Translations under genes and position numbers: made by a program | Notes under the pieces: model-generated | Told to the model about the DNA's origin: nothing | The model's database searches: none | Seen by the model: only the letters and a program-made list of their open reading frames with translations | Shown here: positions 3,499 through 32,795 of the stretch, piece after piece | How the letters are laid out: every line of letters starts with the position of its first letter | How positions within the stretch are numbered: the first letter of the stretch is position 1 | From: Eledone cirrhosa | Lineage: Eukaryota | DNA: 64,000 nt | NCBI GenBank assembly: GCA_964016885.1 | Contig: OZ024753.1 | Location: 13,826,001 to 13,890,000 of the forward strand | Reading direction: 5' to 3'

Positions 3499-3680
3499 CA
3501 AAGTTTGTTTTATAAATATTGACATATCCAGGAACGAGATCTTAACGGTTCAAGTTTTTCCTGGATAGTCTTTGATATTATACTCCAGAAAATCTGTTGA
3601 GTGCTTCAAATCAATTATAAATATATATATAAATATATACGATATTAAATAAATGGAAACTATATTTATAAAACCATATT

Positions 3681-3745
3681 TATTTCATTATACATATTTT
3701 AGGGATACCAAATTAAAATATGGTATGCCTTCATCAGACAAAATA
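3681..3745 (-). ncRNA. Hammerhead ribozyme family A, copy 2; core mutated (GAAA to AAAA), probably inactive
   Basis: Minus strand reads TATTTTGT-CTGATGA-AGGCATACCA...TGGTATCCCT-AAAA-TATGTA-TA-ATGAAATA. Confidence 0.75.
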
Positions 3746-3873
3746 CAATATATAAACAGTTTTATAAATAATTTTGACGTACCCTATTAGATGCAACCAT
3801 TATTTTTGGAAAAATAATGGTTGCATCTAATAGGGTACGTCAAAATTATTTATAAAACTGTTTATATATATTG

Positions 3874-3938
3874 TATTTTGTCTGATGAAGGCATACCATA
3901 TTTTAATTTGGTATCCCTGAAATATGTATAATGAAATA
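3874..3938 (+). ncRNA. Hammerhead ribozyme family A, copy 3 (core intact)
   Basis: TATTTTGT-CTGATGA-AGGCATACCA(TATTTTAATT)TGGTATCCCT-GAAA-TATGTA-TA^ATGAAATA. Confidence 0.82.
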
Positions 3939-4129
3939 AATATGGTTTCTATTTATTTAATATCGTACATCTACTCCAAAAACTTGTCGAGTGCTTTATA
4001 TCAGTTATAAAATATTTACTTGTTGTATCCCAACAACTTTAAATAGAACTTTTGCATATATAAATATATATATATTTGTTGAATTACCAACAAATTAAAT
4101 ATCCCTTTGCTTATATATTCATTTCATTT

Positions 4130-4450
4130 TTCATTTTATGTCCACTTCTCCCTGCTTGCAAGGGTGGGATGGAAACTGATTTTGGCTTGATTTCTACAGC
4201 TGGATGTCCTTCCTAACACCAACCTCATTTACAGTGAGTGCTGGGTGCTTTTTTGCCGTGGCACCTCCACGACCACTTTGCAGTGGAATGATAGGGACCC
4301 CAGTCCTATCATCTCATTTCTACAGCTGAGTAAACGGGAGCAATGTGAAATAAAGTGTCTTGCTCAACACACCACCCGGTCTGAGAATTGAACTCACAAC
4401 CTTTCGATTGCAAGGCCAATGCTCTAACCACTAAGCCATGTGCCTCCACA
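4130..4450 (-). mobile_element. tRNA-derived SINE family A (tRNA head, central domain, RTE-like tail)
   Basis: Minus strand head gtggaggcacatggcttagtggttagagc (A box) ... gtgagttcaattctc (B box). Tail ggtgttaggaagg(g/a)catccagctgtagaaa is shared with the RTE 3' UTR. Near-identical copies at 19110, 44835, 55263 and 61993. Confidence 0.88.
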
Positions 4451-4579
4451 TATCATCTGGGTCTTTTATGTGAAGTTGAGGTCCCTATTAAGTTAATATT
4501 TTTTTGTTCTTTTCCTGAGTGTCCTGTGTGTTTGTCTTTTTTTTTTAAGTAAGCAGTTCTAAAGTATAGTCTACTGTTT

Positions 4580-4636
<57 letters not shown>

Positions 4637-4960
4637 TATGTCTCATATGAAATAATATAGCCAACTTTCCACGCAATACTTTTAGTTAGCACCCCGAACA
4701 CATAATTAGGAATATAATCACTTATTTCCTAATGTTTGTTGAGTGAGTTGGAATTTGGCCGGAGTATCGCTAAAAAGCTTTCTCCGACATTGTATTTATT
4801 ATATATATATATATATATATACACGTCTATATACCATGCTAGAATAGGTTAGACGGGTTTGTCCCATTTAGAGGCAAGTTGGGTCGGGTGACCATGTCTT
4901 GCTCATATAAGAGTGTTTCCGACTGGTTTTCTATGGTTGGATGCCCTTCCTAACACCAAC

Positions 4961-5001
<41 letters not shown>

Positions 5002-5245
5002 TATATATATAACAAAGAGGGTGTGGTAAGATACCAGGTGGACCATAATGCGCCAAAGTACTCAATACTTAGGGTAGTAGAGTGGGTAATGTCGAAACGG
5101 CTTATATATATATAAGCAAAGGGATATTTAATTTGTTGGTAATTCAACAAATATATTTATAACAGATTCGAAGCACTTGACAGGTTTTCTGGAGTATAAT
5201 ATCAATGATATTAATAAATATAATATATATATTAATATATATATT

Positions 5246-5325
<80 letters not shown>

Positions 5326-5856
5326 CAAACAAACAAACACACACACACAGATGCATGCACAAACACATTCCTGTTCATTTCCACTTTTTTCCCCATTTTT
5401 TCCAACACATATTTATATTTTATTTCTAATACTCTACATTCTAAGCAGTGTCCTACATCTGAAGATAATGTGGGATCTTTCTAGTATCACATAACAACAC
5501 AAACATCACCTTATTGTATGTAGATTCTTTAACCAGACAAATCTTTAACAGACAGATCACAACTTGTCAGCAGTACTTTTGAGAGTCTTATTATTTGGGA
5601 AAGTAGGTTCCTCTCTCTATCTACTCTCTGTCAGTTTGGCTCTCTCGATTTACCCTCTGTCTATCTCGCTAGCTATCTACTGTCTCTCTCTCTCTCTCTC
5701 TTTCTATTCACCCTCTGTTTTTCTCTCTACCATCTGTCTGTCTGGATCGCTATCTACCCTCTGCCTGGCTGTCTGGCTTTCTCTCTGTACTATCTCTCTC
5801 TCTCTCTCTCTCTCTCTATGTACCTCTCTATCAACTTACTGTCAATCCGCCTGCTC

Positions 5857-29532: not shown

Positions 29533-29548
29533 ATTACATACATGCACA

Positions 29549-29579
<31 letters not shown>

Positions 29580-30073
29580 TATAGAATAACCTGATCTGAT
29601 TAGTTTTTTCGTTGTTTTGGTACTGTATGGCTGGGTTTTGCCTGCCACAATTTTCAATTTTTTTTGTCAAGCTATCTAAACGTAATGTTATTACTCTAAG
29701 GTCCTACCCTTATTGAGTGCTTTGCTACTCATTCCTTATTGTAGGTCGACTTTGCTTGGCCGCAGCTCAGTTGCAATGCTCAGAAACGGCCGGAGCTCAG
29801 CTGTCGGGGTCCTGAATGTTTTCATATTACCCACTCTACTACCCAAAGTACTACTATCGAGTACTCTGGTGAGTAATGGTCTAACTGGTTTTTACCGCCT
29901 CCATTCTGACACACACACACACACACACACGTGTATATATAAGGAAAAGAATTTGAAAATGCAACTGGAGTCTTTGAAGGATATTTATTTACTTCACCTG
30001 TTTCACAATTCTTATGATTTTCAAAAGTAAAATTGAGATGGAGCATTTGTGTTTCTGTTGTGGTTTGTCTCGA

Positions 30074-30167
<94 letters not shown>

Positions 30168-30196
30168 AAATTTCGCTCTACATGGCTGAGTACAAT

Positions 30197-30602
30197 AAAT
30201 GTAATCCGAGTTTTTCGAATATTAATAATTGTTTCTACTTTTGGCACAAGGCCAGCAATTACCCAGTGCATTACTGGTACTTTATTTTATCGACCCCGTA
30301 AGGATGAAAGGCAAAGTAAACCTCGGCGGGATTTGAACTCAGAATGGCAAGGGCCGTAACTCTACGTGTCAAAGCATGGCGTCCGACCCTCTACCGATAC
30401 TGCCTTTTCGAATATTAATAATAACATTCGATTTGTTTGCAATTATGTAAACAAGCCTCAATTTTATAGCCATGTCAGTAGAATGAACACAAGAGCAAGA
30501 ATGAAGTGTTCATTCTACTGACATGGCTATAAAATTGAGGCTTGTTTGCATAATTGCAAACAAATCAAATATAATTATTAAAATTCGAAAAACTCAAATT
30601 AC

Positions 30603-30608
<6 letters not shown>
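30197..30608. mobile_element. Foldback/palindromic element (~105-bp arms) with a family B SINE inserted in the left arm
   Basis: Arms ...gatttgtttgcaattatgtaaacaagcctcaattttatagccatgtcagtagaatgaacac / gtgttcattctactgacatggctataaaattgaggcttgtttgcataattgcaaacaaatc... The SINE at 30230-30404 has an 18-bp TSD ttttcgaatattaataat. Confidence 0.8.
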
Positions 30609-30663
<55 letters not shown>

Positions 30664-30974
30664 ACTGAGAAGGGAGGGGTGGTTTCAAAAATGTGGTTTT
30701 TCCTTTACAAAACTGCTGACCTTGTGCCTAAATTAGAAACCCTTCTATCCATTGTCTTTGGCCTCCATTACTTAAGATTCTCTTCCCTTCCCCCACCTCG
30801 TTAACAACAGGTTTTACACCTATTTCATAGTTGAGTAGTTAGTTGTAAAAAGGATTACCCCAGCTGTAAAAATAATCATCTCCAACAATATATAATTGTC
30901 CTAATTCCCCCACTCAAACAAAGCCATTCCACAGCAGCCATCTTAGAAGAAACTCAGAGTAAAATAGTAAATCA

Positions 30975-31015
30975 TATGGACTGCTGCTGCTGCTACTACT
31001 ACTACTGCCAACACC

Positions 31016-31048
<33 letters not shown>

Positions 31049-31245
31049 GCCAACAACACTACTACTACCACCACAACCACCACTGCTAGTACTACTACTA
31101 CTACCACCACCACCACTACTACTACTACTACTGCCAACACCACTACTACTACTACTACTGCCAACACCACTACTACTACCACCACAACCACCACTGCTAG
31201 TACTACTACCACCACCACCACCACCACTACTACTACTACTACCAG
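30975..31245. repeat. (CTA/CCA)n trinucleotide compound repeat
   Basis: Direct reading of the sequence. Confidence 0.9.
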
Positions 31246-32795
31246 ACACGAAACGATCGTAAAACTGATATAAATAGGTAAAATAGCTTGACTTTATTAT
31301 TATTTTCATTGTTCAAATCCCGCTGAGGTTAACTTTGCCTTTCATCCTTACGGGGTCGATAAAATAAAGTACCAGTAATGCACTGGGATAATTGCTGGCC
31401 TTGTGCCAAAAGTAGAAACAGTTATTTTCATTGTTAAATTAATATCTAATATCTGACTCTGTATCTAAGGAATTAACTTAGCGGAACACGGAACCTTTCT
31501 ATGGATTTCACTGGATTACTCCCCATAAGATTACATTGAGTTCTATCTACGGTACGGACCCTACCACCAAGGGTAGATCAAACCTCCCAGTCCACACTGC
31601 AAACGTGGTTGGTGTTAGGAAGGGCAGACAGCCATAGAAAACCTGCTAGGTACAGTCCTGTACGAGCGAGACACCGTCACCCAACCAATCTTGCCTCAAG
31701 TGGGACAACTCCCGTCTAAACACATGCTAGCGTGGAAGATAGATGTTAAACGATGATGATGATGAATTGCCAAATATTTCTGTTATGTAACACAAGGCGT
31801 CATGTTCATTGTTTTGGACTCAAAATACTCCAATTTCTTATCTCTTCATATTTACACATGCCCCTCCCCCCTGCTTTAAATATATATCCCCCTCCCTCCC
31901 CTGCTTTAAATATATATCCCTCTCCCTCCCCTGCTTTAAATATATATCCCCCTCCTTCCGCTGCTTTAAATACTTACATTTTCCTTCCTACAACAACAAT
32001 AGTTTCAAGGCCATAATTTATATATCTAAAACAGGGAATGTCTCTTTGTCTCGAGAACCACCCAACCGATTGCTTTCAAACTTTACACATATAATACTTA
32101 TGGTCCTGTGAGTGTTTTGAGCAAAAAAAAATTTCATTTCGATTTAGAGATCTCTCTCTATAATTCTTAGTCTTTCTTTTTAGATAGATACATAGATATA
32201 ACATTGCGCCCTTATAATATCTCTCTGTATGTCTGGCTGTCTGCATTATGACGTGGTGTGTGTGTGTGTGTATATATATATGTATATATAGTGTGTGTGT
32301 ATATATATATATATAGTGTGTAACGTTTTTCGAAATATTTACTTCTGTGTTCACAGATTGATTTTTTTTAGTTTCAGAAGATCCCGTTAAGGGTGAAAGC
32401 AGCGATTCTTTGCTTAAACTTTAATCTGTTATTTTAATATATATATATAAAAGTTTGCTCGCTTTTTTGGCTTAGCTGGTTAATGGCTTCTTAACCATCG
32501 TCTCAGTTTTGTATGGCCTTTTTAACTTATGTTTATAGCTCTGGTATCTTCATATCCATTAAGCGCTTGCCAACACAATTCGGAAGTTGCTTTTCGCTAA
32601 TTTCTACTCGCCGAAATGCGATTCTCGCTAAATTTATATTTATATATATATATATAATTAACAAAAAAAAAAAAAAATACACACCTGTCCCACTACCCCC
32701 ACCCCATCTACACCACCCCTTTCGATGTAAAGTTATGTTGGTACCACAACATCCAGTCCAAAATAAATGAGGTTGTGTAGGTGTCACGAAAAAAA

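Follow-up and report, generated by a model that had tools for sequence, protein, structure and literature searches.

Hairpin-bearing elements at the locus

The window analysed here is a stretch of 64,000 nt from Eledone cirrhosa (assembly GCA_964016885.1, contig OZ024753.1, positions 13,826,001 to 13,890,000 of the forward strand), and its main subject is a small bulged hairpin found in fragments of Hydra-clade Penelope-like elements (PLEs; Table 1). A sequence-only reading of the window had listed eight copies of this motif, all of which are present where it placed them and with the letters it gave. It regarded the hairpin as a reverse-transcriptase (RT) recognition or priming signal of PLE RNAs, or as part of an unrecognised ribozyme.

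Most relatives of the hammerhead region in the window stop in (TA)n at one point, and some run on into the reverse complement of the motif as first written. According to these read-through loci, the window copies of family B (L092, L099, L147-L161) and family C (L101, L108-L126) can be traced to their elements. The near-intact element L031 consists of a pseudo-long terminal repeat (pLTR), hairpin 1, hairpin 2, ATG, open reading frame (ORF), second pLTR and (TA)n, and this layout is repeated in families A, B, C, and F. In element sense, the hammerhead core of the leader is followed after about 50 nt by end site 1 and hairpin 1; a spacer then leads to end site 2 and hairpin 2, and the ATG comes 20-60 nt further on. 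The proposed link of the motif to PLEs and hammerheads is supported, the motif lying between the hammerhead and the ATG.

The ORF of L012 and L031 comprises 740 amino acids (aa) and contains RWR, DKT, CxCX5C, CxxC, and CxH motifs; frames of 740-760 aa are open in many members of the family. The marks described for the Hydra clade are RW[KR], DKT, CxCX5C, CxxC..E, CxH, a hammerhead in the pLTR, (TA)n targets, and a length generally <3 kb (PMC8557442), and since the protein motifs agree, the family is assigned to Hydra-clade PLEs. Proteins of families A, B, C, and F are 36-50% identical. Their N-terminal RWK-type motif is RMRWKA in F, RIRWRA in A and C, and a looser RLRWRT in B, and SDKT (DKG changed to DKT) is present in all 4. 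The CxCX5C linker, as well as CxxC and CxH around the C-terminal GIY-YIG-type endonuclease, is found in A, C, and F, while the B ORF examined stops upstream of this region. The ORFs matched no Pfam family and no PDB sequence; YRDD and VVY..Y.G were recognised by eye.

The hammerhead core CUGANGA..GAAA, a predicted ribozyme, is present in the pLTRs of A, C, and F and in most intact metagenome leaders. Family B, which is abundant, has no CUGANGA core within 300 nt before the ATG in the L152 and L150 leaders and shows the GAAAC half only. Insertions of the families are located in (TA)n. Family A is about 4 kb long, above the usual Hydra-clade length of <3 kb, because of a long 3′ untranslated region (UTR), and most metagenome contigs have 2.3-3.3 kb. 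Locus L264 carries the hammerhead and flanks given for Penelope-1_NV in File S2 of PMC8557442. Other origins were considered and rejected: Naiad, given the C-terminal endonuclease and DKT; a Helitron end hairpin, given the location of the copies in PLE leaders; and a selenocysteine insertion sequence (SECIS) or kink-turn (K-turn), given the lack of an AUGA/GA quartet.

Positions of inserted 3′ ends

The 3′ junctions were mapped by placing the sequence that precedes each TA run on natural reference copies, with the distance taken from the last non-repeat base; near-hairpin windows make up about 2-3% of the reference length. For an evenly spaced sample of 60 stretches of 10 kb (600 kb), 23 of 2,802 TA-run junctions map. 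Among these 23, 19 fall within −3..14 nt before a hairpin (17 of 23 at 6-10 nt), 8 of them at site 1 and 11 at site 2. Query-selected loci provide 201 mapped junctions out of 5,967, with 185 near a hairpin and 141 at 6-10 nt. The modes of the end-to-hairpin distance are sharp in each family (7 and 9 nt for A, 8 and 6 for B, 6 and 9 for C, 6 for F), and given the microhomology of 1-5 nt at the ends, the true start is possibly slightly nearer the hairpin. Copies that end before hairpin 1 are plain pLTRs, and the PLE tail is present in those that stop before hairpin 2. The 600-kb sample also has a TA run 30-90 nt downstream of 23 of its 32 motif matches, as tails predict.

Metagenome elements were compared within the same contig, and 15 of 18 comparisons diverge 0-8 nt before a hairpin; the other 3 are two read-through variants and one contig end. 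As for the 5′ junctions, no peak was detected at the hairpins, and the peak at −186 in family A corresponds to the element's own TATATATA within the hammerhead. Judged by these alignments, the hairpin appears to mark both types of 3′ insertion end, which supports and sharpens the earlier idea of an RT-recognition or priming signal.

Further arrangements were seen in individual loci. At L104:1450-1650 the family-C tail occurs as head-to-tail repeats whose joins run through the initial bases of hairpins 2 and 1, which suggests template jumps from one hairpin to the other. In young copies of family F, whose 710-aa frames are intact, the 3′ UTR contains a diverged hammerhead/pLTR relic, followed by further element sequence (L193:394-540, L193:3200-3300, and L198:3199-3300).

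Form and sense of the motif

Written in element sense, the motif is RCUC-[stem-loop]-U(U/C/A)-GAGY-RCY, a small bulged hairpin with an inner stem of 1-5 bp that starts with a Y-R pair and is followed by a variable loop. This is the reverse complement of the sense initially chosen. The pattern ACTCN{8,20}TYGAGTRCYT has 93,118 matches (46,732+46,386) in the 3.0 Gb of genome searched, versus 6,491 (3,308+3,183) for the reversed control, a count that is inflated by repeat-family copy number. The nearly fixed 2-nt purine bulge described previously has to be replaced by U(U/C/A), the bulge letters in 77 copies being TT (53), TC (13), TA (10), and TG (1). The 3582 copy, formerly placed on the same strand as hammerhead copy 1, lies on the + strand in element sense and hence opposite to it, because it belongs to the other arm of an inverted insertion. 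The G-U pairs of the 5175 copy do not decide the sense as had been argued, since this copy is decayed (GAGT>AAGT) and the fourth inner position is unpaired in other family copies too (L047). Helix-internal wobble pairs in element sense, G-U 8 vs A-C 2 (two-sided p about 0.11, calculated by hand), and 5 G-U vs 1 C-A in alignment A3, modestly favour the sense RNA strand.

An element-sense descriptor, composed after the data had been seen, has 7 matches in the window vs 1.02 ± 0.93 (maximum 4) in 100 dinucleotide shuffles, so that the motif exceeds chance in the shuffle check which the sequence-only reading had suggested. Six of these matches are copies from its list, and the seventh (55057-55081) resembles chance. 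The covariance model it had likewise called for, here built from 11 metagenome copies, reports 12 matches in the window, including 7 of the 8 listed copies, all on the opposite strand, with E from 4.5e-4 to 3.7 (<0.01 in only 2 of the 7). Applied to 28 full loci, the same model matches almost exclusively leader or tail copies. Of the two less strict copies in the list, 29833-29862 is retained as a family-B-like hairpin, and the membership of 31518-31541, which shows no inner pairing and no model match, is unproven. Comparison with Rfam 15 in gathering and E-value modes revealed no catalogued match in the window, and 8 full elements have only weak microsatellite-driven matches away from the leaders.

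Conservation and inner-stem covariation

Scoring of 8,000 candidates against the family-F protein revealed 1,342 homologues at E<=1e-20. When 44 proteins were aligned and the alignment was used as a query, 77 metagenome loci and 6 loci in metagenome-assembled genomes (MAGs) were recovered, of which 60 of the 83 were kept and 23 were dropped for want of an N-terminus or a leader of at least 120 nt; viral contigs searched with the same alignment contained no relative. The contigs of L279-L284 are filed as bacterial MAGs, and their Hydra-clade PLEs are probably contamination from the host animal.

Among 41 non-redundant metagenome elements, two motif matches are found in 23, one in 11, and none in 7. 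Leaders have 57 matches in 9,587 nt vs 2 in 150,488 nt of ORF. For the leaders with a hammerhead (19 metagenome clusters), the numbers with two, one, and no hairpins are 15, 3, and 1, respectively.

Because the outer stem is required by the search, only the inner stem provides a test of structure. Of 77 copies, 74 have a Watson-Crick pair at its first position (C-G 51, U-A 23), and pairs 2-3 are canonical at a frequency of 0.74 vs 0.42 ± 0.05 in shuffled copies, a value reached in 0 of 2,000 shuffles. Equal-length sets were formed with near-duplicates left out: 11 of 13 copies were retained for an inner part of 14 nt, and 19 of 22 for one of 8 nt. Alignment A3 (11 equal-length copies) has 96.6% vs 80.4% pairing and 16 vs 4.7 double changes, and RNAalifold gives the same structure. 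Outer pairs also change, from G-C to A-U in families A, B, and C and from U-A to A-U in L281. As far as sequence comparison goes, the inner stem is covarying.

The coral and sea-cucumber Hydra consensi of PMC8557442 (File S7, inspected by eye) carry the motif as well, unremarked, with two hairpins in Hydra-1_Ajap and a single hairpin in the tail of Hydra-2_Amil and in that of Hydra-2_Ajap; the Hydra-1_Amil consensus does not include the leader region. When the 3′ box is searched as three 9-mers, the whole supplement contains 6 occurrences, 4 in 6 Hydra consensi and 2 elsewhere without a hairpin. The same 9-mers are nearly absent from Naiad and Chlamys consensi, matches that span line breaks being missed.

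A probable start signal for reverse transcription

Taken together, we consider it probable, at roughly 0.68, that the twin bulged hairpin in the Hydra-clade leader positions the RT for internal initiation, acting as a signal in sense RNA. The 3′ end of a copy is where reverse transcription begins, so these ends would mark start sites, with the hairpin on the uncopied side. The proposed template is an RNA that extends beyond the 3′ pLTR into a second leader, whether by tandem read-through, from a tailed copy, or as a hammerhead-made circle. The RT-endonuclease protein would bind this RNA at the hairpin, and the endonuclease would nick a (TA)n target. The target 3′-OH would then be placed on U/A-rich bases that lie 3-10 nt upstream of the hairpin, where microhomology amounts to 1-5 nt. 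As copying would proceed 5′-ward, the hairpin in use would stay uncopied. A start at hairpin 1 would result in a tail-less pLTR, and with a start at hairpin 2 the first hairpin and the spacer would be copied and become the tail. A hairpin-2 start needs a second leader behind the pLTR, and both sites are equally used, from which we infer tandem or circular templates. The hairpin copies in the window are likely tails from starts at hairpin 2.

For a more general form of this proposal the odds seem about even. It holds that a duplicated RNA "start ruler" operates throughout the clade, in which the telomerase-related RT binds a bulged hairpin 3′ of the template and measures back from it by a few nucleotides, the two rulers setting pLTR and tail ends, and that most templates are tandem or hammerhead-made circles. 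A 25-nt tag of the hairpin type could then direct an RT start inside any RNA and would be a portable start signal, i.e., a handle for retroelement engineering. Internal start choice and the one-sided tail are open points for PLEs, for which the hairpin offers a compact conserved candidate signal valid for the whole clade. Natural variants, such as degenerate second hairpins and an unused third copy, define the first mutants of interest, and the hairpin may serve as a boundary marker to annotate about 10^5 copies in this genome.

Several results count against a start-positioning hairpin. Regarding the ends, 4 of 23 mapped ends in the evenly spaced sample fall away from hairpins, and a clear TA run is present at only 7 of the 15 metagenome ends. 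Downstream of the second start of family C (13 junctions) there is only a short GCAC/GUGC hairpin, which has neither bulge nor inner stem. Family F has a degenerate second hairpin, and its third copy, with a good 3′ box and a broken outer pair, has no mapped ends. Folding energies are equal for both senses of the motif, and little covariation beyond one inner pair is seen in the 19 copies whose inner part has 8 nt. The 7 of 41 metagenome elements without a match mostly lack an intact leader. Among the published consensi inspected by eye (PMC8557442 File S7), Hydra-1_Obim has no clear motif and Hydra-1_Crog only divergent forms. Families D and G are not tied to an ORF, with both showing the tail-then-TA layout, and the strict pattern found no family-D read-through with a second hairpin, its 1 match being a neighbouring B copy.

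The first alternative, which seems unlikely, is that the hairpin works at the DNA level. In this case, the GIY-YIG endonuclease would recognise single-stranded complementary DNA (cDNA), an extruded duplex, or the near-palindromic box GAGYRCUY, cut a few nucleotides away and trim longer cDNA, thus producing pLTR ends and tails. Tails are most likely derived from endonuclease resolution of an intermediate according to PMC8557442, PMC11167929 reports that recognition by the D. virilis endonuclease depended on the tail, and covariation alone, like the equal folding of both senses, fits RNA or single-stranded DNA. However, the wobble pairs (8:2, and 5 vs 1 in A3) favour the sense strand over cDNA, and compensatory changes in the variable inner stem speak against duplex recognition. 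If donor DNA were cut, 5′ junctions would be expected at the site as well, but they are not enriched there, and the tail ends of an anole PLE are RT start sites in vitro (PMC11167929).

Somewhat more doubtful still is a role of the hairpin as a cis packaging or translation-control site, with the ends set by nearby U/A-rich microhomology or by RNA 3′-end processing (a nuclease or termination before the hairpin). Such a role would suit the location of hairpin 2, 40-90 nt before the ATG, the strong U/A bias of bases −8 to −5, and the use of family C site 2 with a minimal hairpin only. Against it, these elements contain many further TA-rich places that are left unused, and at family C site 1, which has only one T in common with the target, ends nevertheless cluster 6 nt before the hairpin; the offsets, moreover, are tight within each family.

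It is very improbable that the hairpin is part of an unrecognised ribozyme, as had been suggested, or a hammerhead helper (by tertiary contact, or by dimerisation via a self-complementary 3′ box). In favour of this, the hairpin is invariably found 60-120 nt downstream of the hammerhead core, and families A and B have a self-complementary 3′ box. The commonest box, GAGCACUC, however, mismatches itself centrally, and the hairpin has merely 4-8 bp and no conserved loop. The element already has a separate hammerhead core, Rfam reports no match, no 5′ junctions pile up at the motif, and the link to 3′ ends would be left unexplained. Finally, an accidental short palindrome shared by a few repeat families, with the genome count inflated by their copy number, has a negligible probability and is refuted by the leader-vs-ORF counts, the two-copy leaders, and the covariation, because position, number, and pairing are kept across 37 divergent metagenome clusters and the published consensi and the motif is nearly absent from ORFs.

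Relation to known systems

Small cis RNA structures that guide the template choice and start of RTs include the 3′-UTR stem-loops of long interspersed elements (LINEs) and R2, hepatitis B virus (HBV) epsilon, and telomerase template-boundary elements. The LINE and R2 signals are located upstream of the start and become part of the copy, and the bulge of epsilon templates its own primer. In contrast, the Hydra-clade hairpin is duplicated, lies 3′ of the start, and would stay uncopied when used.

The closest parallels are found within PLEs. For the Poseidon PLE of Anolis carolinensis (PAc), two internal start sites bound the tail, and RNA about 55 nt past the start is required (PMC11167929). The elements described here are similar in having two probable internal RT starts bounding the tail, an AT-rich target, and an upstream hammerhead, RNA 3′ of the start being required in PAc. 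Unlike PAc, they have their proposed starts in the 5′ leader, each a few nucleotides 5′ of its own conserved bulged hairpin, and tails of about 60-95 nt. The accessible text on PAc defines no conserved motif. With the Hydra clade of C-terminal endonuclease-positive (EN+) PLEs in PMC8557442 the elements share protein motifs, pLTR hammerhead, (TA)n targets, inverted 5′-truncated arms, and a one-sided tail. The accessible text of that paper does not mention the hairpin ('stem-loop' and 'hairpin' have 0 occurrences each). The tail is attributed to endonuclease resolution in PMC8557442 and to two RT start sites in PMC11167929.

No description of the hairpin was found in the accessible portions of the literature searched, including Craig 2021, Cervera 2014, Weinberg 2017 and 2019, Frangieh 2024, the O. 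vulgaris repeat paper, and a 2026 retrozyme preprint; subscription papers and Repbase notes lay outside this scope, and the supplementary figures on PAc may show a stem-loop. The element class and internal initiation are thus known, and the conserved twin hairpin with a fixed offset to both end types appears to be new.

Motif copies and other features of the window

Table 1. Hairpin copies and related PLE fragments in the window (strand in element sense).
Feature	Position	Strand	Details
Subfamily E (A-related) pLTR end	3382..3534	-	Hammerhead core 3454-3490; meets (TA)n 8 nt before the hairpin start of read-through copies; compare 5175 copy
Hairpin 1, subfamily E	3582..3602	+	Covariance model E 6.3e-4
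Left arm of inverted family-A insertion	3635..3784	-	pLTR, decayed hammerhead core; ends at start site 1, no tail; 91% to L192
Right arm of inverted family-A insertion	3833..4058	+	pLTR, hammerhead core 3882-3922, hairpin 1 and tail; ends at start site 2 in TA; 85% to L192
Hairpin 1, family A	3973..3992	+	Covariance-model match
Hairpin 1, family B	5060..5083	-	Tail 5022-5090 ends at site 2 in (TA)n; 90% to L152; model E 4.5e-4
Decayed hairpin 1, subfamily E	5175..5195	-	One outer-stem change (GAGT>AAGT); tail ends in TA near 5113; covariance-model match
Hairpin 1, family C	16884..16902	-	Tail 16844-16920 flanked by two TA runs; 85% to L196; covariance-model match
Family-F Hydra-clade PLE fragment	17126..17632	-	Partial 5′ leader, ATG near 17507, ORF start; 83% to L193
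Decayed third hairpin copy, family F	17539..17568	-	Not in the sequence-only list
Hairpin, family D	29693..29718	+	Other D copies end about 78 nt further in (TA)n; covariance-model match
Hairpin 1, family-B-like copy	29833..29862	+	Small internal duplication; 76% to L152; covariance-model match
Look-alike, repeat family G	31518..31541	+	Outer stem and bulge; inner stem unpaired in element sense; no covariance-model match
Decayed hairpin, family H	32538..32564	+	Model E 0.016; (TA)n about 70 nt later; same family in L333 and L337; not in the sequence-only list
Subfamily-E pLTR	39239..39377	-	Hammerhead core 39307-39347; ends 7 nt before the hairpin position

The region 3382-4117 is an inverted pair of subfamily E, whose tail is split by a nested inverted family-A insertion with only one tailed arm. 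The tail after the 3582 hairpin runs to about 3626, is interrupted there by the nested insertion, and resumes at about 4060-4117. A possible TA-rich target duplication of 10-13 bp flanks the family-A insertion (3626-4060). The ORF fragment at 17082-17519 is assigned to family F, and repeat family G has 674 candidates. Additional families of hairpin-bearing tails, none linked to an ORF, also occur in the evenly spaced sample (L333, L337, L340, L358, L369, and L376).

Other parts of the window contain fragments that resemble RTs of non-LTR retrotransposons, at 1149-2001(-), 39973-40653(-), and 48303-48770(-). Large minisatellite arrays without relation to the motif occupy 5860-6400, 8100-11800, 23977-27360, and 27945-29122, and a self-inverted repeat of 187 bp (88%) at 30405-30591 adjoins a repeat resembling a short interspersed element (SINE).

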